The notes under the pieces: model-generated
Database searches by the model: none
Told to the model about the DNA's origin: nothing
Seen by the model: the letters and a program-made list of their open reading frames with translations, nothing else
Made by a program: the position numbers and the translations under genes
Part shown: one piece after another, positions 3,642-61,999 of the stretch
How the letters are laid out: each line of letters opens with the position of its first letter
Position numbering within the stretch: the first letter of the stretch is position 1
Source: a virus
Virus record (IMG/VR): IMGVR_UViG_3300045988_121635
Length of the DNA: 64,000 bases
Direction: 5' to 3' (one strand)

Positions 3642-3651
3642 TATAATGCTT

Positions 3652-3770
3652 GACATACTCCCATCGCTAAAGCAAACGGGATTCTTGGATACAAACGTAC
3701 GGAACCCCCGGTTTTACAATCGTTGGAATCACCCGCACTTTCCAACTCGGAAATGCCCTTCCGAGGTCGC
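3652..3770 (-). mobile_element. orphan copy of IS200/IS605-family right end / TnpB-omegaRNA scaffold (no tnpB); ~85-90% identical to 12182-12300 and retains a decayed TnpB C-terminal coding remnant (RKGISELES...)
   Basis: TTGACATACTCCCATCGCTAAAGCAAA(C/T)GGGATTCTTGGATACAAACG... aligned by eye with the 3' end of the tnpB element at 12182; translation of minus strand gives RKGISELESAGDSND vs TnpB RKGISELESKSNSSDSN. Confidence 0.75.
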
Positions 3771-3856
3771 AAGACAGGGCAAATATAATGTTTAATTATC
3801 ATCTGACACATAAATGGGATCAGTATTACCATTAAATAACATAAAACAATAATAAT

Positions 3857-4111: not shown

Positions 4112-4917
4112 TATTAAAAACAACAACCAACGAATTTTGTTTCATTAACGTAAGTTTTTATGAAACAATAGCAGACCCGCGTCATTTCTTTTCACAGGAA
4201 TATGATGAGATGCCGGAATATGAAGAAGAATCGGATTTTGATTTTGATTCTTATTGCAATAAGTTTGTTCCTTTTGTACAGGAATGGGCGAATGAGGTGG
4301 GTGAACGCCTTTATGAATATGGCGTGAATAACATAAAGGTAATATCGGTAGGACATCCAAAAGAGTACAATTATGATACTGATTGGATGGATGTAAGGAT
4401 AGAGTTTTGTGATGAATGGAGGCAAAAGATGTTATCTAACATTGGTAAGATTGTTAATGATGATAAATGCAAGAAGTATGCGGAGGCTAATTATCGGTCG
4501 GTACCAGGATACATCTTTTTAGGGCCTGAAGATTTAAAGGAATTTGAAAAGAAAATAATAGAAAGAAAGTCGGATTCTGGATATGATGTAACAATATTAT
4601 TAAACATGTATCTAACTTTGGCTTTTGTAAAAGAATTTGGATTTAAAGCCGGAGAAGCATGGAGTGAAATAACAGAATATGCTTACGGATGTTTGTCGTA
4701 TTCTGATTTTGCAACAACAGAGATGCTTATACCAGAAGGTTCGGAGCATTTATTCAAAGACATTTACACGGCAAAGGCCGACGAATTATATCATCATGTC
4801 CTGGATAAATTCGGATGGGCGTGGCGTGATCCGAAATATAAGTCAGAAACAGAATTATGCGCAATGTTAAAATGGGCAAAAGAAAAAGGCTTGACCATTG
4901 AAGAGTTAAGTATTTAA
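4108..4917 (+). CDS. hypothetical protein (269 aa, acidic N-terminus)
   Basis: long ORF, coupled start. Confidence 0.6.
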   Translation: MILKTTTNEFCFINVSFYETIADPRHFFSQEYDEMPEYEEESDFDFDSYCNKFVPFVQEWANEVGERLYEYGVNNIKVISVGHPKEYNYDTDWMDVRIEFCDEWRQKMLSNIGKIVNDDKCKKYAEANYRSVPGYIFLGPEDLKEFEKKIIERKSDSGYDVTILLNMYLTLAFVKEFGFKAGEAWSEITEYAYGCLSYSDFATTEMLIPEGSEHLFKDIYTAKADELYHHVLDKFGWAWRDPKYKSETELCAMLKWAKEKGLTIEELSI

Positions 4918-6593: not shown

Positions 6594-6981
6594 ATTAAAT
6601 AAAGTGGTTAAGATCCTAAAAGAAAAAGGATTCGTAGTATATAGAAAGGGCGGGAAGGAGCCAGGTGTATTTTATGCCAAAGAAGGTGACAGCCGGATAG
6701 GATTCGTTTATCCAAACAACGGATATATATACGACAGGATAAAAATGTGGTCTTTTTCAAGGGTGTATAAACCACATAAGAAAACCGGATCTTCGTGTTT
6801 AATGTGTGTCAGCGACGAATTTACTATAGAAAATGCGATTAAGAGCATAGAAGATAGACTGTGGGTAAATTATATAAAAGACGGTAACAGAAAACGACCA
6901 GAAGAATATAAAAATATAAGAGAATTTGTTGGTAGCTTCACTAAATTCTACAGCTCTGTAGAATTAGTTGAAGTAAAATAG
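6571..6981 (+). CDS. hypothetical protein
   Basis: ORF 136 aa. Confidence 0.5.
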   Translation: MKMNVENKLNKVVKILKEKGFVVYRKGGKEPGVFYAKEGDSRIGFVYPNNGYIYDRIKMWSFSRVYKPHKKTGSSCLMCVSDEFTIENAIKSIEDRLWVNYIKDGNRKRPEEYKNIREFVGSFTKFYSSVELVEVK

Positions 6982-7002
6982 TTTTCCATGTAAGTTAGTT
7001 AC

Positions 7003-7038
7003 CGGCACTGGTCTGCGAAGATAGGTGCCGTTTTTTTT
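7003..7038 (+). terminator. intrinsic terminator: CGGCAC-(TGGTCT-GCGA-AGATAG)-GTGCCG + T8
   Basis: GC stem, GNRA loop, 8-T run read directly; same loop motif as 1357-1386. Confidence 0.75.
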
Positions 7039-7059
7039 ATTCAAGAAAGGAGGACAAAG

Positions 7060-7311
7060 ATGGAGAAAAGAGGCAAGAAGATGCCTTACGAGGTAGTCAT
7101 ACAGGAAAGAAAAAGAGTGGATTTGTACGGTAACGTAGTGTATTATATCCATTGGTTTGATAAATATGGGTACAATATCACAAACGAATGGAAATTCTGG
7201 AGCAAGGGTCCGAAAAAGAAATACGATAGAGTTAATCGTTATCTAACGGATAGTTGGTTGAAGGAATACTGTGGGAATAACGATTTAAAGATAAGGAGAA
7301 TAAAGGAATGA
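7060..7311 (+). CDS. hypothetical basic protein
   Basis: ORF 83 aa; ATGA overlap. Confidence 0.45.
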   Translation: MEKRGKKMPYEVVIQERKRVDLYGNVVYYIHWFDKYGYNITNEWKFWSKGPKKKYDRVNRYLTDSWLKEYCGNNDLKIRRIKE

Positions 7312-7823
7312 AAAAGATAAAAGTAGACAAAGTGATATTATACTATATGGATCGGGTAGACCCTGACGGGAACCCATACCGGTTCTATGTGTATAAAGGA
7401 ATGGCATCTGAAATAGAATACTTTTGCACGGAAGAGGCAGGTAATATGACTATACCAATCGGAGAAGGAGAGTATGTCAAGATTGTACCAAAAGAAATAG
7501 AGAAAATACCGGTAAGGGGATATAGGAAGCTTACTGGAATATGGAATCGTGAAACATGTAACGGAAAGGGATGGTATAGGCTTTTTAATTATTTCAAATA
7601 CAAGCCGACCCTATGTTATTTTAAAAAAGCTGGACATGATGTAAATGGGAATACAAGATACGAAATATCATTATTTAACAACATTATAAATGTGACAAGG
7701 TATTTCAATCTGTGGAGAATGAAGCCAGGAAAGTATGCTATGGTAACAAACGAGTGTGGCGCCTTGGATGTTATAAAAGAAAAATTTGACAACATAAATA
7801 TAGTGGAATATGGATCTGAATGA
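7308..7823 (+). CDS. hypothetical protein
   Basis: ORF 171 aa. Confidence 0.5.
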   Translation: MKKIKVDKVILYYMDRVDPDGNPYRFYVYKGMASEIEYFCTEEAGNMTIPIGEGEYVKIVPKEIEKIPVRGYRKLTGIWNRETCNGKGWYRLFNYFKYKPTLCYFKKAGHDVNGNTRYEISLFNNIINVTRYFNLWRMKPGKYAMVTNECGALDVIKEKFDNINIVEYGSE

Positions 7824-8178
7824 ATTGTACAAAGAAATAGAAAAAGCGGAGGTTGATCTGAATGCAAAAAGATTAAAGTACATCAAAGAAGCATTAGCAG
7901 AAAACAATGGAATTATAAAGCTAAAATTTAAAGAGTTTAAAGAATTTAAAGAAACTAATGATGTATTTGACTTTGACGATCAGTTTCCGGTGATAATAGA
8001 AATTGATGGGATTCCTATGTATTTAACGGAAGTGTATGTCAAAAAAAACGATTTTCGTATAGTTCTGCTGGATTATGATGATATGACTTTAGGTGATTAT
8101 GATAATACAGGGGAAAATGAACAGGTTGCTTATTTTATTAACTATTGCTTAAATCAAGACAAAGATGGGAAAGAGTAG
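7810..8178 (+). CDS. hypothetical protein
   Basis: ORF 122 aa. Confidence 0.45.
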   Translation: MDLNELYKEIEKAEVDLNAKRLKYIKEALAENNGIIKLKFKEFKEFKETNDVFDFDDQFPVIIEIDGIPMYLTEVYVKKNDFRIVLLDYDDMTLGDYDNTGENEQVAYFINYCLNQDKDGKE

Positions 8179-8353
8179 AAAAGATTATGAGAAGTATCTT
8201 AACTCAATATCTCCAGATAGAGACGATGAGAGATGGATCATTGGAGGAAAGAACAGGTATTGCGGTAGAGAGAATTATGGCACTATGATCAAAAGGTATG
8301 ATCCTATTGGTTTTAATGTAGGATACAGGGAGTGGGTAGAACAGCCAGAGTAA
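8165..8353 (+). CDS. hypothetical protein
   Basis: ORF 62 aa. Confidence 0.35.
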   Translation: MGKSRKDYEKYLNSISPDRDDERWIIGGKNRYCGRENYGTMIKRYDPIGFNVGYREWVEQPE

Positions 8354-8375
8354 GGCGGCGCCTGCCCTGCCATGA

Positions 8376-8404
8376 GGTCGGCCTGGCTGTCTGTGGCCAG
8401 GACC
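8376..8404 (+). terminator. GC-rich hairpin GGT-(CGG)-CCTGGC-TGTCTGTG-GCCAGG-ACC after 8165..8353; preceded by AGGCGGCGCC motif also at 883-892
   Basis: palindrome read directly; no U-tract. Confidence 0.4.
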
Positions 8405-8446
8405 GTACATTAGTCAGATAGTGAACGACGAAAACAATACAAATGT

Positions 8447-8926
8447 TTGTTGATTATGAGAGTAGAAGATTTAACGAAGTTTGAAGGAGAATGTCCTAAC
8501 ATAGTCGTATTTGGTACATATATGGATATTAGGGTTCCATTAACGAAGAAATGGAAGAAAATTATTAACGAGAGAGGAGATAAGCCAAACACGTATCATA
8601 ACTGTTTGATTAGTTGTATCTCAGAGCAGATCGCGTTGTCCGGATTCAACATGAAAAGCATCGGGAACCTCTTAATAAAGGGAATCGTTTTTAATCAAAA
8701 CGATTACTATAAGTATAACGACGTAGGAGGATTCCCGGCAACTATCAACGATTTGGGGTATTGGGATAAAAACAGGGTAGAGCTAAATGAAGATTTTCAC
8801 ACTGTTAGGCTGTTTAATACAGTAAGTGTATATGGATTGATGTTTGGACCCATAAAACAAAATAATTTCATTACGCTGGAAAACGATATAATGCAGATTA
8901 ATGTTGGCAGCATAACTTACATCTAA
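8447..8926 (+). CDS. hypothetical protein
   Basis: ORF 159 aa. Confidence 0.5.
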   Translation: MLIMRVEDLTKFEGECPNIVVFGTYMDIRVPLTKKWKKIINERGDKPNTYHNCLISCISEQIALSGFNMKSIGNLLIKGIVFNQNDYYKYNDVGGFPATINDLGYWDKNRVELNEDFHTVRLFNTVSVYGLMFGPIKQNNFITLENDIMQINVGSITYI

Positions 8927-8937
8927 AGAGATAAATC

Positions 8938-9693
8938 ATGAAGCTATTATACTTAGTGGAGTCGGGAGAATCGAAGTTTCTTGTCTTCGACGAAATGCCT
9001 GATAAAATTAGCACAAAGTACGGAGATGATACCATTATTGGAAGGATAGGAGGTATATTCTATGATTTCTTTGCAAAGAGAAATGAGAGAAGAGAAGCTT
9101 TCGGAGGTAGAAAGTTCGATATCGTACTTGACAACGGAGAGATAGAGAAGTGTGAAGGGCAATGGTGGGATGCGGTGACAGACAGAGCAAGAGAAGAATT
9201 GGAAAAAGAGGGAAATCCATTTTCCAAAATGATGTTGATCGGTGTTTCTTCAGTAGATAGATTATCGGATTGTTATGTGTATTATGGGTTATGGGCATCC
9301 GAAAGTAAGATTGAAGAAATGATAGCTGACTACAAAGGTCATATATATGAGTATTACGAATTTAAGGAAGAGGTTATTAATAAGATAAATGAGACCCGTA
9401 GAAAATCATATATTCAATCTTGGAAAGAACAGATAATACGGTCTGGGATGAGGCAGAAAAGAAAAGACGTATTTGAATCACCGGATGGATTGTATATTGA
9501 GATGGTATATGAGAACAAAGCGTTTGTGCCATATAGACCTATAAAAGAAACCCAGGATTTACCTATAGATGCAAAGTACATACCGCTTCTTACAAGGATA
9601 TTTGGAAAGAACATACTTGCGGAGATAGGAGGGGATAAGATATTTATAACTACTGGGAAATATGCTGTGAATTTTTGGTGCTGGAAAAAGTAA
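8938..9693 (+). CDS. hypothetical protein
   Basis: ORF 251 aa. Confidence 0.55.
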   Translation: MKLLYLVESGESKFLVFDEMPDKISTKYGDDTIIGRIGGIFYDFFAKRNERREAFGGRKFDIVLDNGEIEKCEGQWWDAVTDRAREELEKEGNPFSKMMLIGVSSVDRLSDCYVYYGLWASESKIEEMIADYKGHIYEYYEFKEEVINKINETRRKSYIQSWKEQIIRSGMRQKRKDVFESPDGLYIEMVYENKAFVPYRPIKETQDLPIDAKYIPLLTRIFGKNILAEIGGDKIFITTGKYAVNFWCWKK

Positions 9694-9727
9694 GCATAAT
9701 GTAAAAAGAAGATTAAAATAATAGCTT

Positions 9728-10042
9728 ATGACATTTCGAGAATTTATGCAGGAGAACGGCTATGACCTGATAACTACCTTTTGGGAAGATTTCAGCATAG
9801 CCGACAAGTATGGTGTAGCAGGTGTCAAAGATACCTACAAACGTGCATTCAGTGAATGGGAAGATGATTATAAGTTTTTCACGGAATTAACGCTCGTATT
9901 GAATCATAAAATCTGGCAGCATTATGAAAGCAATCGTGAACTGGCCGCATTGTATGACCGGTTGTGGCGGGAAGCTGACGAGTATGCCATGAACAACTTT
10001 AAGGGAGAGGAACTTGATTATTATTATAAAATAACAGATTAA
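9728..10042 (+). CDS. hypothetical protein
   Basis: ORF 104 aa. Confidence 0.45.
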   Translation: MTFREFMQENGYDLITTFWEDFSIADKYGVAGVKDTYKRAFSEWEDDYKFFTELTLVLNHKIWQHYESNRELAALYDRLWREADEYAMNNFKGEELDYYYKITD

Positions 10043-10046
10043 TATT

Positions 10047-10331
10047 ATGACAGCAGCAGAAAAATTGCGTATGGAAATAGCGCAAGAAGCACCATTCAGT
10101 AAAGACGAATTTATTAGTAAAATCTCTCGTCTAATTAAGGCGTATGGATATGCAAGTTTTATTTGCGACAAGCATATTCGAGAAACTAATATATCATCTA
10201 ATGGTAACACAATTCGTATGGCACATGAACAGGTAGCAATTGATTTTGCTCGTTCTGAGGGTTTCTCGGTATCATATAAACATAACAGTTATGGTGTTAG
10301 ATATATATTATTCACTTTGTGTAAAATATAA
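10047..10331 (+). CDS. hypothetical protein
   Basis: ORF 94 aa. Confidence 0.45.
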   Translation: MTAAEKLRMEIAQEAPFSKDEFISKISRLIKAYGYASFICDKHIRETNISSNGNTIRMAHEQVAIDFARSEGFSVSYKHNSYGVRYILFTLCKI

Positions 10332-10335
10332 AGAC

Positions 10336-11136
10336 ATGGAAGACGGACTTATTACAACAAAAGAAGTAGGGAATTATCGTATAAAAATATACTATGATAC
10401 TGACAGTGCATGTCCTTGTGAAAGTTGGGATATGGCAGCATGTTTCTTATGGGAATGTATCTATTTACATCGACTGCAAGATGTGTGCGATTGGAGAGAA
10501 GTGTTTGGTAAATACGGAGATAGTCGGCACTCACTTATAGATGCACTACATAAACTTATTAGTGAATATGTTAAATGGAAAGACTTGCTGAATTATTTTA
10601 AGAAAGGCAAGATTGACGGTTATCGACTGAGATATGATAACCATGATAAAATGTGGTATTATAAAGAAATTTTTAGCATTTCTCCATCAGATCTTTACAC
10701 GTATGATTATACGTATGAATTTATAGAAGACTTAGGATGTGAAGAATTGATTCAGATTCTTTCAGACTTAGGCAAGGATATATTTGTCAAAGAATGGTCC
10801 ACAACAGGATACAGTCAAGAGGATTATGTTAAAGGTATAGCTTTCTGTACAAAGGAGAGGTACACAAAAATGGTTAGTAATAATACTTCCGATTGGAAAA
10901 CCCAAATTGACAAATTGATTGATGATGAAGTGAAATCCATAGGTATGTGGATGTGGGGAGATGTAAAGGGGTACGTGCTTGAAAAGAAAGTGAAATTTGT
11001 CAAGAAATACGAAGATGAATCCAGGGAGGATGAAGAGGGAGAAGAATGGGAAGAGGTTGATTCCTGTTGGGGTTATTATATGGAAACAGACGAATTGATA
11101 GAAGAAATAATGAAAGAACATAACCTGAAAGAATAA
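10336..11136 (+). CDS. hypothetical protein with acidic C-terminus (start taken at internal ATG 10336; ORF track extends to 10240)
   Basis: ORF; first ATG not overlapping upstream gene. Confidence 0.5.
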   Translation: MEDGLITTKEVGNYRIKIYYDTDSACPCESWDMAACFLWECIYLHRLQDVCDWREVFGKYGDSRHSLIDALHKLISEYVKWKDLLNYFKKGKIDGYRLRYDNHDKMWYYKEIFSISPSDLYTYDYTYEFIEDLGCEELIQILSDLGKDIFVKEWSTTGYSQEDYVKGIAFCTKERYTKMVSNNTSDWKTQIDKLIDDEVKSIGMWMWGDVKGYVLEKKVKFVKKYEDESREDEEGEEWEEVDSCWGYYMETDELIEEIMKEHNLKE

Positions 11137-11157
11137 GGAGATGGGGAGATCACGAGG

Positions 11158-11346
11158 GTGTATTATCAAAAAGAACACCAAAGAATTACAAATAATACTG
11201 ATTCAGGTCAATGGCTGATAGTGACGGACGCCATAGGAGACAGGTGGGTAAAGTGCGAAGAGCTCCGGTTCAGGGGAGACGCAAGCTGCATCACATGGCG
11301 TAAGGCTACAGTAGATGAAATTATTCAACATTTTAAAAGAAGATAA
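11158..11346 (+). CDS. hypothetical protein
   Basis: ORF 62 aa. Confidence 0.3.
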   Translation: MYYQKEHQRITNNTDSGQWLIVTDAIGDRWVKCEELRFRGDASCITWRKATVDEIIQHFKRR

Positions 11347-11348
11347 TT

Positions 11349-11762
11349 ATGGGATATATATGTACAAGATGTGGTGGAACAAAGGTTGCTTGTGAAGCCA
11401 TAGTAAATCCGAATACCAGAGAAATAATAGATTATTTTGATGAATCTTTCGCGCATGCTATTTGCGGGGATTGTGAAAACGAGGTAATAATATCTAACGT
11501 TGAAGAAGTCAAACATGAAATTGATTTAAGATTTCATGAATTTGTAGAAAGAACAGGTAAGGAGCCTGAATACGTAGAATGTCAGATTGTATGGAAGGAG
11601 ACAGGAGACGATAAAAGAGCGACAATCAAACTATCGCTGAGTATCAACGATGATGATAATGATGATGTTTTTTATTATTGTAATGGGATAGAATCATTTA
11701 AGCAACTTGCTGAATACGGGATGGGAGAATTTATCGTAACATTTTGTTGGAGTTTCTTTTAA
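11349..11762 (+). CDS. hypothetical Zn-ribbon protein (CxxC...CxxC)
   Basis: ORF 137 aa. Confidence 0.45.
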   Translation: MGYICTRCGGTKVACEAIVNPNTREIIDYFDESFAHAICGDCENEVIISNVEEVKHEIDLRFHEFVERTGKEPEYVECQIVWKETGDDKRATIKLSLSINDDDNDDVFYYCNGIESFKQLAEYGMGEFIVTFCWSFF

Positions 11763-12202
11763 GAAATACATTCAGTTATCATTTTTTAATAACATATCTT
11801 ATGAAAACACAAGAAGAATATGCCCATGAAATTGACGAAATCGTTCGCCGGGATGTAGAGAGCTGCCAGAGTGACTGGTTTATAATCGACAAGGAGATAT
11901 TTATGCAGCCAGAGAATAAGAACAAGGCATTTATTTTGGGAACAAGAAAGACCGGGTGCGATATGATCGTACTTGGAGGTACTAATTGCAGTGGATCCAA
12001 TATGGATTGGCTTTTCGGTTGCCTTGGCAATGAAAACTTCTATGTATGCCAGCCAGTATCTTTCTATAAATCACAACAAGAAATCCAGAAAGTAAATCCG
12101 CTTTATGCTTTCAAGGTGGCCACTGCTTATTTTAGAGAACAAGGGAAGGTTCCGGTATTTGAAGATAATAACTGTAGATTATTGACATACTCCCATCGCT
12201 AA
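11744..12202 (+). CDS. hypothetical protein whose last 7 codons (LLTYSHR*) are supplied by the IS right end, so its 3' end is altered by the tnpB insertion
   Basis: stop codon TAA lies inside TTGACATACTCCCATCGCTAA IS terminus. Confidence 0.45.
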   Translation: MLEFLLRNTFSYHFLITYLMKTQEEYAHEIDEIVRRDVESCQSDWFIIDKEIFMQPENKNKAFILGTRKTGCDMIVLGGTNCSGSNMDWLFGCLGNENFYVCQPVSFYKSQQEIQKVNPLYAFKVATAYFREQGKVPVFEDNNCRLLTYSHR

Positions 12203-12380
12203 AGCAAATGGGATTCTTGGATACAAACGCAAGAAACCCCGATGTTGCTATCGCTGGAATTACTCTTGCTCTCCAATTCGGAAATGCCCTTCCGAAGTAT
12301 ATTACGGGCTGCAAGAATATCACGGTCGTTAATTGCGCCGCACGCTGGGCACACCCACGTGCGGTCGCGTAACGACAGTC
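12182..12380 (-). ncRNA. predicted omegaRNA (reRNA) scaffold overlapping tnpB 3' end and IS right end; guide would continue into flank below 12182 (minus strand reads ...GGGAGUAUGUCAA|UAAUCUACAGUU...)
   Basis: established TnpB architecture; terminal hairpin TCCCAT-C-GC-TAAA-GC-AA-ATGGGA at 12190-12212 seen; extent inferred. Confidence 0.5.
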
Positions 12381-13374
12381 CTTTATTAATGCAGCCACAT
12401 TCACAAGTTTTGGAAGAAGGATACCATTTGTCAATCTTGTGTATCGTTACTCCATATTTTGAAGCAACATACGTAAGTTTATCAATAAAAGAAGAATGAC
12501 TGAGATCGGAAACTTTCTTTCCCCACAAACGTTTCATTCCTTCAATGCTTAGATCTTCAATGAAAATATAATCATATTGTTTGCATAACTGATGAGCTAA
12601 TTTCCATTGAAAATCTGATCGAAGATCGTTTATTTTACGATACGTTTGTTGAAGTTCAAACAGTTTCCTTCTTCTATTATTGGATCCTTTCTTTGCATTA
12701 GAAAGCCGTTTGTTTAGTTTTCTAATCTTGTTTTGATATTGTTTGAAGAATAGAGGAGAATCAATTTTGCTACCATCGCTTTTAGTTAAATAAGTTTTTA
12801 GTCCAAAATCCAATCCTATAGATGCACCATCATGTGTCTTTCTATAAGAGCTTATAGGATTATGATCTGTAACTACAATCAAACTAAAACGTGAACAGGT
12901 TTCTCTAACTATTCTAATTTGTTTAACATTACCTTCGTAGCCTCTACTGTATGAGAATCTAAATCGTTTGTTTCCTTTGTTAATTGTTAGACAATTCCCA
13001 TTTAGGGTAAACCCACCTTGTTTGAAAACAAAAGAGTTGAATTTCTCCGGTGATTTAAACTTAGGAGGTCGTTTAGCTAACTTCTTAAAGAAACGATTAT
13101 AAGATTCATCAAGACGTTCAAGTATTTCTTGTGTTGTTTGAGAATGAAGAAGATTTCTTTTAATTCTTTTGGCAAAATACTTCTTCATTTTGCCAACTGA
13201 GATATATTTCCCAAACAGTTTGTGATACCTACGTTGTAGAGCTAACGCATGATTCCATACAAAACAACATTCACGAAGCATCTTGTCAAGATACTTCGTT
13301 TTCCTGGAATGGTATATGTTGTATTTGTATGAAATCATTTTTTTTATCTGTAATTTTGATTCAAAATTAATCAA
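12199..13374 (-). CDS. tnpB: TnpB (OrfB) RNA-guided endonuclease of IS200/IS605 family: RuvC-like motifs (IGLDFG, IFIEDLS, NDRDILAARNI) and CxxC...CPACG zinc finger
   Basis: 391-aa ORF; motif order D...E...Zn-finger...D typical of TnpB/Cas12 ancestors. Confidence 0.9.
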   Translation of the reverse strand: MINFESKLQIKKMISYKYNIYHSRKTKYLDKMLRECCFVWNHALALQRRYHKLFGKYISVGKMKKYFAKRIKRNLLHSQTTQEILERLDESYNRFFKKLAKRPPKFKSPEKFNSFVFKQGGFTLNGNCLTINKGNKRFRFSYSRGYEGNVKQIRIVRETCSRFSLIVVTDHNPISSYRKTHDGASIGLDFGLKTYLTKSDGSKIDSPLFFKQYQNKIRKLNKRLSNAKKGSNNRRRKLFELQQTYRKINDLRSDFQWKLAHQLCKQYDYIFIEDLSIEGMKRLWGKKVSDLSHSSFIDKLTYVASKYGVTIHKIDKWYPSSKTCECGCINKGLSLRDRTWVCPACGAINDRDILAARNILRKGISELESKSNSSDSNIGVSCVCIQESHLL

Positions 13375-13432
13375 ACCAATTCATCTACCTACTAAAGTAT
13401 GGTGGTTTTGTTGGTTAAATAATCATAAAACT

Positions 13433-13840
13433 ATGAGCATAAAAGTAATAAGATACAGGTTGCCCTCTTATTGGGCTTGTCCGTTAATCAATGATGATTA
13501 CACTGGATTAACGGATGAAGAATGTGAGGAAATCCATAAAATACAAGATATGGAAAGATTGAATTTTGAAACATTGTTTCGTATCGTAAGATGGGATTAC
13601 AACCGTTGCTTTAAGGATGAATCATTGGACAAGGATTTGTTCGTAGAAAAATACGGACGGGTAATGGGTGAACATTATTATAACAAGTTTGTCCATGAAT
13701 TTGACGGAAATATTCTGAAGATGGTTGGTTACTTCAGAGGTTCCGAAAAAGAGGGGCAAGTCTTCTGCGATATGATAACCGAACGTATTGAAAAATACGA
13801 AAAGAGAATGTCATATGATAAAGGTAAGTTAAACAATTAA
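13433..13840 (+). CDS. hypothetical protein (start at ATG 13433; ORF track start 13283 lies inside tnpB)
   Basis: ORF; MSIKVIRYRL... Confidence 0.5.
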   Translation: MSIKVIRYRLPSYWACPLINDDYTGLTDEECEEIHKIQDMERLNFETLFRIVRWDYNRCFKDESLDKDLFVEKYGRVMGEHYYNKFVHEFDGNILKMVGYFRGSEKEGQVFCDMITERIEKYEKRMSYDKGKLNN

Positions 13841-13852
13841 AAAGATATTTAT

Positions 13853-14914
13853 ATGAACAATTCAATGGTCGCTCACTTGTGGGCTCATGAACAAGAAGAA
13901 TCAGCATCAGGGAGCAATTTCTTCTTTGAAGGTACAAGTATTTATTCTTATGGGCATCACTTTGAAGTCGGGAGAATAGTAAAAAACAAACAAGGGAAGA
14001 AAGCATACCTGATAAATGAAGATTATTATTCTGCTACCACGAGCAAACATCAATGCTATGTTCGTAATGCGATACCAACTTGGGCAATGGTTTTCAGTGT
14101 AGGGGATAATATATCGGATACTGGTAATATGAGGTTTGTTGCCAGCAAACTGGAATCAATTAAGAAGTCTATTGAAAAATACAAAAGAGCTAAAACAGAA
14201 TTATCTTATACAGATATTTGGGGCGCTTTTGGGAATATGATGGATTACATTCAGTTCTTTAACATGGGGACTGCTAAGAGTATCCTTAAAAAGAGTGCTA
14301 ATGATTGGCTTGGAACCAATCATGAATTATCCAAGAGCGGAGATAGTATCAAGCGTAAGCACGTACATGAATTAAAACGCATCTTTCAAATTTTATTAGA
14401 TCATCAAGGATTAAAAGTGTTAGGGACCGTAAATGTGATTGTTGATGAAGTTTGCGGGGAAGGTACATGGATTAAGTATTCAGAAAGATCTGAAAGATGG
14501 AGAAAGGGTGAGGAAGAAAGAGAAAGAATAAAATTAGAGAGATTAAGAAAGGAAGAAGAAGCCCGTTACAAGGATTTTGATGAAAAACTGGAAGAGTGGA
14601 AGTCAGGAGAAATCAATTTCTTGAATACACCTTTCTATATTCCTGGTGAAAAACCTAACGCCTGGATTCGTATAAAAGGAAATATTATTGAGACAAGTAA
14701 ACAGATAAAGATTGGAATAGCAGAAGCCAGAAAACTGTGGCGGGCTGTGTCGGCAATGCACCGGGGCGCCGAGTTTCGGCACGGTCTGGTGGAGGACATC
14801 ACCGGTCACCAGTGGAGTCTAAATCGGTACGAAAACGATTTGCTAACCGCTGGATGTCATAGGATAGCATATAACGAAATGGAGAGAATAGCAAAACAAC
14901 TGGGATGGGTGTAA
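13853..14914 (+). CDS. hypothetical protein with charged coiled-coil segment (EERERIKLERLRKEEEARYKD)
   Basis: ORF 353 aa. Confidence 0.6.
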   Translation: MNNSMVAHLWAHEQEESASGSNFFFEGTSIYSYGHHFEVGRIVKNKQGKKAYLINEDYYSATTSKHQCYVRNAIPTWAMVFSVGDNISDTGNMRFVASKLESIKKSIEKYKRAKTELSYTDIWGAFGNMMDYIQFFNMGTAKSILKKSANDWLGTNHELSKSGDSIKRKHVHELKRIFQILLDHQGLKVLGTVNVIVDEVCGEGTWIKYSERSERWRKGEEERERIKLERLRKEEEARYKDFDEKLEEWKSGEINFLNTPFYIPGEKPNAWIRIKGNIIETSKQIKIGIAEARKLWRAVSAMHRGAEFRHGLVEDITGHQWSLNRYENDLLTAGCHRIAYNEMERIAKQLGWV

Positions 14915-34536: not shown

Positions 34537-34893
34537 ATGGTTCAACTATTTAAAAGGAGTGTAATGAAAGAAGATCTAATATGTGGAGTAGCGATCCTTT
34601 TGTATTTAGTTTTATTATACTTACTCACGACAGCTTTCATAAAAACAGGTAGAGCAATAGATCGTTATAAGATGAAGAAGAAAACTGACAAAATAAAAGT
34701 CGGTCAAAGATACGAACATAAGAGCTACTTTGAGGATCCATTTGAAAGAGGCAAGCATGTGATTAAGATATTAGACATAAAAGAAGGGTACGCTCTATAT
34801 GAGTACGAAGAAAAACTATATATACGTTCTTCTGTGAGTCTTGAAGATATTGTTAAAAGATATGTTTTAATTACTGATGTTAAACACAAGTAA
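34537..34893 (+). CDS. hypothetical protein with N-terminal TM helix
   Basis: ORF 118 aa. Confidence 0.45.
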   Translation: MVQLFKRSVMKEDLICGVAILLYLVLLYLLTTAFIKTGRAIDRYKMKKKTDKIKVGQRYEHKSYFEDPFERGKHVIKILDIKEGYALYEYEEKLYIRSSVSLEDIVKRYVLITDVKHK

Positions 34894-35274: not shown

Positions 35275-36685
35275 ACTTAGACCTTACCAAAAAGAGGCAG
35301 TAGATGCCGGGCTTAAGTTTCTTACAGGAAGATCTAAGAAGCCTGGCATAATCGTAGCCCCATGCGGATGTGGAAAGAGCCTTCTGATATCCAAGATAGC
35401 ACATGAAATAAATAGACCGACATTAGTATTACAGCCCTCAAAAGAGATTCTGGAGCAGAATTATGCGAAGGCCGTATCATTCGGTTCTGAACCTACTATA
35501 TATTCTGCTTCATGTGGTATAAAGGAGCTGTCGGCTATGACTTATGCAACATTAAAGAGCATAAAGAAAGATGTAGCGAGGTTGAAGGATATAGGGATAG
35601 ATACCTTATTGATAGACGAATGTCATTCAGGATATTCTCCTGAAGAAGGTTCTGAATTTATGGAGTTTATGAACGGGTTTCCAGAGGCGAAGGTGCTGGG
35701 CTTCACCGCCACTCCCTGCCGCCTCCGAACCTACAGTTCCATGCTGGAAGGAAACTACAGCAAGCTCAATATGTTGACGAAAGACGAGCATAACTTCTTC
35801 AAGAAAATAGTTCATGTGACTCAAATACAAGAACTAACTTCTCAAGGGTTTTGGTGTCCACTTAAGTACGAACGATGGTCTTTTGATGAATCGGCTCTGA
35901 TGTTAAACAGTACCGGAGCTGAATACACCAACGAATCTATTAAAGAAAGTATTGTACGAAACGGCTTAAACAACTCTATCTACAAGCGCCTTCTTCAACT
36001 TATGAACGAGCGTAAAGCCATTTTGGTTTGCATGGATTCTATCGAATCATGTAATAGAATATCAGAGTTCATGAATGCCAGGATGGGAGCCATAACCGGT
36101 GTCGTAACATCGCTAACAACCAAAAAGAAAAGAGAACAAATTATATCCGATTTCAAAGAAGGTAAGTTGAAGGTGGTTTTTAATTATTCAACGCTTGCTA
36201 CCGGATTTGATTTTCCTGAACTTGATTGTGTGATATTTGGTCGCCCAACTTTCTCATATTCAACTTATTACCAAATATTAGGCCGCGCCGTACGCATCCA
36301 TCCTGACAAGAAAGAGGCGCTGATAGTTGATTGCTGCGACAACATGAGACGCTTTGGTCGGATAGAAGACCTGACAATCGAACAATTCCCTTCTAAGGGC
36401 TGGTGTATGTTTGCCGGCGATCAACTTCTGTCCAATATAAGGATGGGTGATATTATTACCAAAGACGAGATCCTTCGCCGGGCAGCCTCGCTTAAATCTG
36501 TGAATGGAGATGGTAGGAGAGAAGACGATCTTGACAGTATAATAATGTGGTTTGGAAAATATGAAGGAATTAGATTCAAGGACATACCGGTGTCTTATTT
36601 TAGGTTCTTGGCTGAGAATATGGCAGTAAAACCAGGAGATAGAAAAGAAAAGATTATCGAATATTATAATAGGATAAAGGCATGA
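35261..36685 (+). CDS. superfamily-2 DEAD/DEAH-box helicase (PYQ Q-motif, GCGKS Walker A, DECH Walker B, TATP motif III)
   Basis: helicase motifs I, II, III in order. Confidence 0.8.
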   Translation: MMGFELRPYQKEAVDAGLKFLTGRSKKPGIIVAPCGCGKSLLISKIAHEINRPTLVLQPSKEILEQNYAKAVSFGSEPTIYSASCGIKELSAMTYATLKSIKKDVARLKDIGIDTLLIDECHSGYSPEEGSEFMEFMNGFPEAKVLGFTATPCRLRTYSSMLEGNYSKLNMLTKDEHNFFKKIVHVTQIQELTSQGFWCPLKYERWSFDESALMLNSTGAEYTNESIKESIVRNGLNNSIYKRLLQLMNERKAILVCMDSIESCNRISEFMNARMGAITGVVTSLTTKKKREQIISDFKEGKLKVVFNYSTLATGFDFPELDCVIFGRPTFSYSTYYQILGRAVRIHPDKKEALIVDCCDNMRRFGRIEDLTIEQFPSKGWCMFAGDQLLSNIRMGDIITKDEILRRAASLKSVNGDGRREDDLDSIIMWFGKYEGIRFKDIPVSYFRFLAENMAVKPGDRKEKIIEYYNRIKA

Positions 36686-37038
36686 ACAACAAGAGAAGAA
36701 AAAAAATATTGGATGTTATTAACAACGTAAATAAGTATAAAACGGATTTTGAATACATCAAATCAAAGTTGTCGGAGTTGAAGTGCAACATAAATTCAGC
36801 CAAAGATGATGTTGATATGATTTTAGACGAAGAGACTGAGGCGAGAGATAATATACCGGAATCGTTACAAGACTCAGAAAGATATTGGGAGTCAGATCAG
36901 GCTGTAACTGATATGGAGGAGGTGGTTGATGACATGGAAAGTATTATAAATGATATAGATGATGTGATTTCGACCATAGATGGGAGCATTAAAACCATAA
37001 ATGGTTCTATTAAAGTAAATTTGGAAGGAATAATATAA
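36682..37038 (+). CDS. hypothetical acidic protein
   Basis: ORF 118 aa. Confidence 0.45.
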   Translation: MNNKRRKKILDVINNVNKYKTDFEYIKSKLSELKCNINSAKDDVDMILDEETEARDNIPESLQDSERYWESDQAVTDMEEVVDDMESIINDIDDVISTIDGSIKTINGSIKVNLEGII

Positions 37039-41191: not shown

Positions 41192-41425
41192 ATGAAGTAT
41201 TTTATTTTATTGATGACATTAGTATTATCATCATGTTCAAATAATCATCAGGTTAATGACGGATGGGTTATATATGATCTACGTCCTTTACAGGGTGGAC
41301 GTGTGATGTATTATGCTGAAGACGAAAGAATTTCAATATTTAAACATAATAGAATCATAAAATTCGTTGGATACCAAGGAGAATACAATATCGGAGATTC
41401 TATTAAAATCGTAAAAGTGAAATAA
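41192..41425 (+). CDS. putative small lipoprotein (signal peptide + lipobox LSSC)
   Basis: MKYFILLMTLVLSSCSNN. Confidence 0.45.
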   Translation: MKYFILLMTLVLSSCSNNHQVNDGWVIYDLRPLQGGRVMYYAEDERISIFKHNRIIKFVGYQGEYNIGDSIKIVKVK

Positions 41426-61379: not shown

Positions 61380-61419
61380 GTGATAAATATTTTAGACAAA
61401 GATAGTATAAAAATAGAAA

Positions 61420-61999
61420 TTATGAAACTTCTATTTCATAATGCGAAGCCTCTGTCTCAACTATCAATCTTCCCTCTCCTTCGAACTCAACGCTATCATT
61501 TCCTGGACCAGTAACAAAAGGGAAATCAGATACGGATGTTACATAATCTCCAGAACCACCGGAGAAAGACTGACTTTTACTTTGTTTGTAATTGATAGTC
61601 AATTGTGTTTTACCTATCTGAAGAGTTCCAGATAAATTTTTAGTATAAGTAGTGGTAGTTGTAATATCCCCATTTTTATAACAATACATTATAAAGGTGG
61701 TAACCGGACTCTTTTTTATATTACTATCCGGACCTGCATGATAAGATTCATTCCCTCCAAATATGCTATAAATGTGACAATAAGGACCGACTCTTTTACT
61801 TGAAGTTTTAGCCTTATCCTCGACTCCTTTCAAAGATATAGTAACCTTACTCTTGTATTCAATATCCTTCCAATTACAGACTCCTTCACTTACGTTTCCA
61901 ACAAACCTGTCATCAACATAAACCTCTATATTCCCCCTGCTGATTGGTCTTCAACTGATACTGAACAAGACTTGAAACATCTTCGTATCTCCTTCTCAT
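61420..61999 (-). pseudogene. frameshifted paralog of 62085..62615 gene: ATG 61999 (MRRRYEDV...) runs 28 codons to a stop; downstream frame (opens 61950, TTG 61833, through 61420) joins if one G is removed from the G5 run (C5 at 61933-61937)
   Basis: manual translation of both frames; paralogy KR-PY-C...I-I-GP...D with 62085 gene. Confidence 0.45.

Follow-up and report, generated by a model that had tools for sequence, protein, structure and literature searches.

Introduction

Cas12 descends from TnpB, itself a compact nuclease for genome editing, whose natural role in homing has been shown both in bacteria and on plasmids. In IS608, an insertion sequence (IS) of Helicobacter pylori, the cleavage site TTAC lies 19 nt 5' of the left-end hairpin, the sequence TCAA lies 10 nt 3' of the right-end hairpin, and a left guide tetranucleotide, AAAG, pairs with TTAC (PMC3201880). 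The TnpB of ISDra2 from Deinococcus radiodurans has TTGAT as its transposon-associated motif (TAM), and members of the IS1341 group encode TnpB only and depend on a TnpA transposase supplied in trans (PMC13565253). Homing is an established mechanism for IS605-family TnpB proteins (PMC10055086; PMC10690162), and “non-restorative homing” into co-infecting phages or plasmids has the standing of a theoretical proposal only (2026 review, PMC13565253). Two TnpB-family “transposases” were reported earlier in some Epsilonunovirus genomes (PMC11054128, Viruses 2024). Here, we describe a TnpB-encoding element in IMG/VR virus record IMGVR_UViG_3300045988_121635, a stretch of 64,000 nucleotides that is referred to throughout, at its full length, as the window and that, judged by its sequence, is a human-gut epsilon crAss-like phage. 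The element is an IS200/IS605-family, TnpB-only (IS1341-type) insertion sequence of 1,243 bp, located on the minus strand at window positions 12182..13424; it is non-autonomous and otherwise intact. We consider it probable that it was inserted 3' of the tetranucleotide TTAT by “peel and paste” transposition through a Y1 TnpA acting in trans, and that it is subject to RNA-guided homing and retention mediated by its own TnpB.

The element shares with IS608 the lack of inverted repeats and target duplication, a tetranucleotide target, the 19-nt and 10-nt spacings, the terminal TCAA and a 4-nt guide that covaries with the target; it differs in that its target is TTAT, its guide is AAAA, it has no tnpA and it is carried by a crAss-like phage of the virulent type, not by a bacterial chromosome. 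With ISDra2 TnpB it has in common a D/E/D RuvC triad, a zinc finger, a predicted guide RNA encoded across the tnpB 3' terminus into the right end, and a guide drawn from the flank, whereas the predicted TAM here is TTAT and the RNA scaffold matches no Rfam family. The lineage departs from the IS1341 group as described in appearing largely confined to phages and in having an autonomous tnpA- and tnpB-bearing cousin in the same kind of phage. A functional analogy can also be drawn to SegF, SegB and Mob, free-standing homing endonucleases of T-even phages: a nuclease gene with conserved phage genes on either side should cleave the allele lacking it in a co-infecting relative and be copied in through repair. 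Here, however, recognition would be through an RNA guide and a TAM, the element has transposon ends, and it does not belong to those protein families. The available portions of the crAssE-Sib report (PMC11054128), which concerns the same phage group, mention the genes and do not extend to element ends, target, RNA, empty sites or tnpA. TnpB genes are already on record in epsilon crAss-like phages and the element is otherwise an ordinary insertion sequence. The value of the locus lies in serving as a natural test case for RNA-guided homing between phages: the ends are mapped exactly, TAM, guide and scaffold are predicted, empty and occupied alleles number in the dozens, and there is an autonomous cousin. 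The TAM-bounded deletions beside the right end add to this value.

Element boundaries and the empty site

The reverse complement of window 12182..13424 was taken as the element query. Among 80 IMG/VR loci whose TnpB proteins are 88-97% identical to that of the window, element positions 1 and 1243 are where blastn alignments stop, and the sequence beyond both ends varies from locus to locus. A 21-mer that joins window 12172-12181 to 13425-13435 occurs exactly in 46 IMG/VR contigs, and in these both flanks match over at least 60 nt. These exact empty junctions and flank matches identify the element as a clean 1,243-bp insertion; it lacks terminal inverted repeats as well as a target-site duplication, and the empty site is simply the left flank joined to the right flank. 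The comparison with related phages that the preliminary description had proposed thus yielded both the empty site and a TTAT beside the left end, and the alternative that it had raised, namely homologous phages displaying no signature of interruption, did not hold. Its extent of 12182-13432 stands at the right end, and the left end, which it had placed between 13375 and the ATG at 13433, is now mapped within that interval at 13424. An occupied right junction identical to that of the window was found in only two IMG/VR contigs, which are 93-96% identical to the window over the portion fetched.

The effect of the insertion on the surrounding genes is modest. Where the element is missing, the upstream gene closes with CRLIKL, and its TGA shares bases with the following gene's ATG (ATGA); the window version closes with CRLLTYSHR, with the six codons LTYSHR and the stop supplied by the right end of the IS. 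Three native codons (IKL) were therefore exchanged and the stop/start overlap was split, and nothing was deleted. The preliminary description had counted seven IS-derived codons plus the stop, one too many, and its view that the insertion truncated or replaced the 3' end of the gene was overstated, given a clean insertion three codons before the native stop. A scenario in which the element also removed the true 3' end of this gene together with a following gene might be suggested by the related phage crAssE-Sib, which has no IS at this site and carries instead 323 bp that include a 101-aa gene, and by the right-end deletions that do occur in the family, for example one of 5.2 kb in locus L003, its closest relative. 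Such an event has a negligible probability for the window copy, for which it is refuted by the 46 contigs that join window 12181 directly to 13425: the ancestor of the window copy already lacked the crAssE-Sib gene, and the 323-bp difference is pre-existing gene-content variation.

Identity as an IStron was considered and rejected: an Rfam scan of window 11000-14500 at E<=1 returned no match, including no group I intron, and the element runs antisense to the genes around it. Two differences at the right junction were also recorded among related copies. In one copy of the pair L081 and L082, the five terminal bases of the element (GTCAA) occur twice at the junction, and L010 and L011 differ by a 12-bp deletion situated right at it.

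Target specificity and terminal hairpins

On the minus strand, TTAT (ATAA on the plus strand) occupies 13425..13428, directly 5' of the left end, where it is the candidate TAM and TnpA target. TTAT precedes the left end in 16/16 independent left-flank classes, with T preferred one position further 5'. Since the empty sites contain TTAT as well, it is part of the target, not of the element. Read along the strand that encodes tnpB, the left end consists of TTAT, 19 nt ending in AAAA, and a subterminal hairpin of the form CCACC-loop-GGT(G/A)G whose foot lies 19 nt from the cleavage site; in window coordinates the left guide AAAA is at 13406-13409 and the hairpin at 13385-13405 (together 13385..13409, minus strand). 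The right end (12182..12216, minus strand) comprises GAAT at 12213-12216, a hairpin CCCAT..ATGGG at 12192-12212 that contains five covarying pairs, and 10 nt closing with the cleavage site TCAA at 12182-12185. In IS608, GAAT is the right guide tetranucleotide.

The guide covaries with the target: AAAA accompanies TTAT in the window subfamily, and AAAG accompanies TTAC in sister subfamilies, among them a TnpB-only subfamily (TnpB ~90% identical) that has another left end and sits 3' of TTAC. Such covariation would be expected of insertions made by a Y1 TnpA with the recognition code of IS608.

The TnpB protein is intact and under selection

The open reading frame (ORF) at 12199..13374 on the minus strand would encode 391 aa from a TTG at 13374. 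Because all close homologues are 379 aa in length, the true start is the ATG at 13338 (MISYKYNIY...), and tnpB accordingly occupies 12199..13338, with 379 codons and a TAG stop at 12199-12201, an assignment based on Pfam, PDB, PHROG and homologue lengths. The 391-aa length in the preliminary description needs correction, and the RuvC and zinc-finger motif set that it ascribed to this ORF is present. Pfam matches to OrfB_IS605 (PF01385, 4e-18) and Cas12f1-like_TNB (PF07282, 2e-19) both exceed the curated cut-offs, a match to HTH_OrfB_IS605 is weak, and the protein also matches phrog_506, annotated “transposase” (E 3e-91). The protein aligns over its whole length to the ISDra2 TnpB structures 8bf8, 8exa and 8h1j (E 3e-29), with D177, E261 and D340 corresponding to the ISDra2 catalytic residues D191, E278 and D361.

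These three residues and the cysteines C312, C314, C330 and C333 are invariant among 98 full-length homologues, and consequently the protein is not a dead, TldR-like derivative. A TldR-like or domesticated dead TnpB, which the preliminary description had named as an alternative, was rejected on the combined grounds that the RuvC residues are intact, the ends are intact and the insertion is polymorphic; with the domains, invariant residues and mapped ends in hand, its designation as an intact IS1341-like TnpB-only element is upheld. The 379-codon ORF is intact in 72/78 copies, and across 62 distinct copies, which differ by up to ~12% in their DNA, the ratio of non-synonymous to synonymous substitution rates (dN/dS) is 0.135. 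TnpB is under strong purifying selection. A 379-aa TnpB with a short predicted TAM, TTAT, is also a candidate tool.

In three loci with otherwise close tnpB genes, L003 (the closest copy, 97% aa identity), L025 and L036, the gene carries one in-frame stop each. These stops may reflect either decay or stop-codon reassignment, which has been reported for some crAss-like phages. A second tnpB and additional omega RNAs were sought in the window, and only a 191-bp relic at 3650-3840 was recovered; a weak tblastn match at 36676-36981 was discarded as a second tnpB, since an unrelated acidic protein is encoded there.

A structured, omega-RNA-like scaffold and its predicted guide

Covariation, a covariance model and folding together point to a structured, presumably transcribed omega RNA that spans the 3' end of tnpB and the right end of the element. 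Its core, an omega-RNA-like scaffold of ~122 nt with five helices, lies at 12182..12303 on the minus strand, may extend 5' to ~12356, and overlaps the last ~35 tnpB codons as well as the right end. The minus-strand omega RNA fold suggested in the preliminary description did prove structured: the 3' end of tnpB and the right end fold well beyond shuffled sequences (minimum free energy z -4.5), and RNAalifold applied to 17 diverse copies returned 52 pairs, 19 of them with compensatory changes. When the named five-helix structure was evaluated on a 16-sequence alignment, 97.6% of cells were paired and 19/36 pairs had changed on both sides, against 6.6 both-side-changed pairs in shuffles and 0-3 when the partners were slid by 1-3 columns. 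Synonymous divergence (dS) falls from 0.27-0.61 in the first 320 tnpB codons to 0.11-0.14 in the last 40-60, as is expected if a functional RNA is also encoded there. Within the window, the covariance model has only two matches, at 12182-12303 (145.5 bits) and, in the relic, at 3650-3772 (121.9 bits). A long-range pairing is predicted between GUAUGUC, just before the guide, and a segment ~165 nt upstream, and its variation is one-sided only.

By analogy with the TnpB/omega-RNA architecture, the 3' tail of the scaffold would run into the right-end flank, giving a putative guide of about TAATCTACAGTTATTATC; the predicted guide segment is 5'-TAATCTACAGTTATTATCTT-3' at 12162..12181 on the minus strand. 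In the 46 empty-site contigs the corresponding sequence is TTTAT followed by TAATCTACAGTTA(C/T)TATC. The predicted TAM is TTAT (often TTTAT), and the predicted target is TAATCTACAGTTAT.... Matches to the Bacteroidetes-type -7 box, which we regard as hints only, were noted at two places on the minus strand: TAATTTTG at 13362-13369, 24 nt upstream of the tnpB ATG, and TATATTTG at 3780-3787, upstream of the RNA part of the relic.

Distribution among phages

Altogether, 311 related loci were found in IMG/VR, and a search of bacterial genomes, confined to close relatives, returned one locus, which is 57% identical, lies in phage-like surroundings in a metagenome-assembled genome (MAG) of Candidatus Cryptobacteroides and is without tnpA. 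On these counts the TnpB lineage seems for the most part restricted to phages; the MAG locus is uninformative on the donor of TnpA. The 80 close loci represent 36 distinct combinations of left and right flanks, and for several of these combinations the predicted empty junction was found in other genomes.

At three sites where the IS family is inserted in other phage contigs, the window itself is uninterrupted: 61423/61424 on the plus strand (within 61410-61437; occupied in L024/L026), and 34776/34777 (34763-34790; L027) and 41410/41411 (41397-41424; L034/L035) on the minus strand. At each of them the TAM is followed directly by the sequence from which the occupied copies would draw their guide, and the window is thus itself a potential target of the TnpB-omega-RNA complexes of its relatives.

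Transposition, homing and the source of the transposase

In the mechanism that we favor, a Y1 (HUH) TnpA supplied in trans would have placed the element by single-strand “peel and paste” insertion between two small overlapping genes. The minus strand would then provide both the RuvC/zinc-finger TnpB and an omega RNA whose 3' tail enters the flank, and the resulting complex would recognize TTAT plus flank sequence, an arrangement that exists only in element-free genomes. TnpB would cut the empty site, and recombination with a genome that carries the element would mend the break. For a phage, the expected outcomes would be retention after excision and, upon co-infection, copying into, or exclusion of, empty-site relatives. 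Production of the RNA, cleavage of TTAT-flanked targets, the supply of TnpA by a donor and homing between phages are inferences.

A Y1 (HUH) TnpA is lacking from the element, as expected for the IS1341 subgroup, and the statement in the preliminary description that no tnpA is nearby was borne out across the entire 64-kb window. In more distant relatives the gene is present. MT839900 (L002) encodes at 4227-4625 a 132-aa Y1_Tnp protein (PF01797, E 1e-39); the neighboring tnpB, in divergent orientation, is frameshifted and shares 75% DNA identity with the window element. Relatives of this kind, bearing tnpA and tnpB (70-75% DNA identity), occur in 17 IMG/VR phage contigs of up to 157 kb, at several sites and always 3' of TTAC; loci with such a relative are L130-L145 and L152 (2501-2896). 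The left guide of these autonomous relatives is AAAG and their target TTAC.

Several lines of evidence weigh against the favored mechanism. The 64-kb window yielded no tnpA in a HUH/Y motif screen or by tblastn with a related Y1 transposase, and tblastn of related loci totalling 1.0 Mb was equally negative. The one tnpA-bearing relative that was found targets TTAC and differs at its left end, and it may therefore not mobilize the window copy. Circle or tandem junctions joining the right end to the left end are absent from IMG/VR and from JGI metagenome assembled contigs. The window left stem carries one mismatch (GGTAG vs the consensus GGTGG), and the DNA fold energy of the single window ends is no better than that of shuffles; because these single-end energies are not significant, the hairpins rest on comparative evidence. 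The predicted guide has a single mismatch, at position 14, to the most frequent empty allele. No Rfam family matches the scaffold in the scan of 11000-14500 noted above, and a scan for sigma-70 promoters and terminators was at chance level, as was the Bacteroidetes TAnnTTTG motif (64 occurrences of the motif found vs 68 expected in the window). Finally, 14 copies at one site differ mutually by 2-5%, as does the flank on the left-end side; this joint divergence implies long (vertical) residence, and the diversity profile around the 14-copy site shows no signal of recent homing or co-conversion.

Part of the same evidence would suit a stranded copy, inherited vertically and no longer mobile, whose ORF is intact merely because the insertion is too young to have decayed. 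The lack of tnpA in the window and neighboring loci, the left-stem mismatch with non-significant DNA fold energies, the missing circle junctions and the decayed sister copy at 3650-3840 are all in keeping with such a history. Neutral decay, however, would not preserve a dN/dS of 0.135, intact ORFs in 72/78 copies, invariant catalytic residues and compensatory changes in the RNA, and we regard this explanation as very improbable.

The strength of purifying selection despite the absence of tnpA also raises the question of whether the phage keeps TnpB for its own use, as an RNA-guided weapon against co-infecting relatives with the empty allele or as a regulator. Consistent with such an exaptation, copies at a single site have persisted and diverged by 2-5% along with their flanks, close relatives are essentially phage-restricted (311 viral loci vs one 57%-identical bacterial locus), and phage homing nucleases that kill competitors are known, as cited in PMC13565253. 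Yet both ends and their hairpins remain intact and the TTAT rule still holds, the guide is set by the insertion site and not chosen, and the occupation of at least 30 sites in polymorphic form, with 2-3 occupied vs 46 empty alleles at the site considered here, is the pattern of a mobile parasite and not of a fixed gene. Exaptation is on this balance unlikely as the primary explanation, although it and a selfish element that transposes and homes are not mutually exclusive.

A relic copy and deletions adjacent to the right end

The window contains a second, decayed copy of the IS family, the 191-bp relic at 3650..3840 on the minus strand, which follows a TTAT at 3841-3844 and is 85% identical to 12182-12298. 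It consists of a diverged left part of ~75 nt and the last ~116 nt of the omega RNA and right end, with the helices intact and the TCAA end retained; relative to crAssE-Sib it is a clean insertion 3' of TTAT, and its putative flank guide is GCATTATATAAATACAAAG. The possibility that it is a proliferating miniature inverted-repeat transposable element was rejected, since 24/24 copies in IMG/VR are at one site, as befits an old insertion. In three of these 24 contigs, L184, L185 and L189, the right part of the relic is deleted together with the adjoining phage DNA.

Among the copies of the IS, the same left flank is in several cases joined to different right flanks. Eleven such right flanks were mapped on element-free references, and 8/11 begin immediately after TTAT or TTAC, with two more following CTAY; the background frequency of TTAT/TTAC endpoints is 1.4%, giving P ~2e-13 for 8/11. 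The deletions begin exactly at the right end of the IS and range in size from ~125 bp to 5.2 kb, the largest being that of L003, the closest relative of the window copy, which lacks window 6978-12181. Loci with deletions beside the right end include L003, L028, L030, L039, L040, L052, L053, L009, L068 (vs window 61720), L024, L043 and L061, among others.

Deletions of this kind could arise either by recombination between two insertions in the same orientation or by direct joining of the right end to a downstream target. Exact searches of IMG/VR for the second-insertion junctions predicted for two deletion endpoints found none, and this absence mildly favors direct joining over two-copy recombination. 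We tentatively entertain, as a possibility that we would still bet against, a broader model in which a phage-adapted IS605 lineage, mainly without transposase, spreads and persists by RNA-guided homing between co-infecting epsilon crAss-like phages and a residual TnpA-type chemistry generates the adjacent deletions. If this were so, deletions made by joining the right end to a downstream target would strip accessory genes and sculpt phage genomes. An adjacent-deletion mode is, to our knowledge, not described for the IS605 family, no literature search having been made for it; the TAM-bounded deletions are the only potentially new biology at this locus, and they are unproven.

Phage context and neighboring genes

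The window is syntenic with phage crAssE-Sib (OR575929), with 81-94% identity over the shared stretches. The genes next to the element encode small proteins that have no Pfam or functional PHROG assignment. On the plus strand, the upstream gene (11801..12202) encodes 133 aa from an ATG at 11801 and matches neither Pfam nor PHROG, and the downstream gene (13433..13840), which encodes 135 aa, is intact, starts 8 nt from the left end and has a weak DUF6926 match below the Pfam cut-off. The epsilon crAss-like phages are an abundant human-gut group, and insertion sequences contribute to variation in gene content among crAss-like phages.

On either side of the IS, the window and crAssE-Sib differ greatly in gene content. 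About 4.1 kb of small ORFs (window 7496-11575) are present in the window and not in crAssE-Sib, and only crAssE-Sib has the 101-aa gene and one of 897 nt (L001 4608-4930 and 5032-6073). The 897-nt gene splits what in the window is the single 135-aa gene at 13433-13840.

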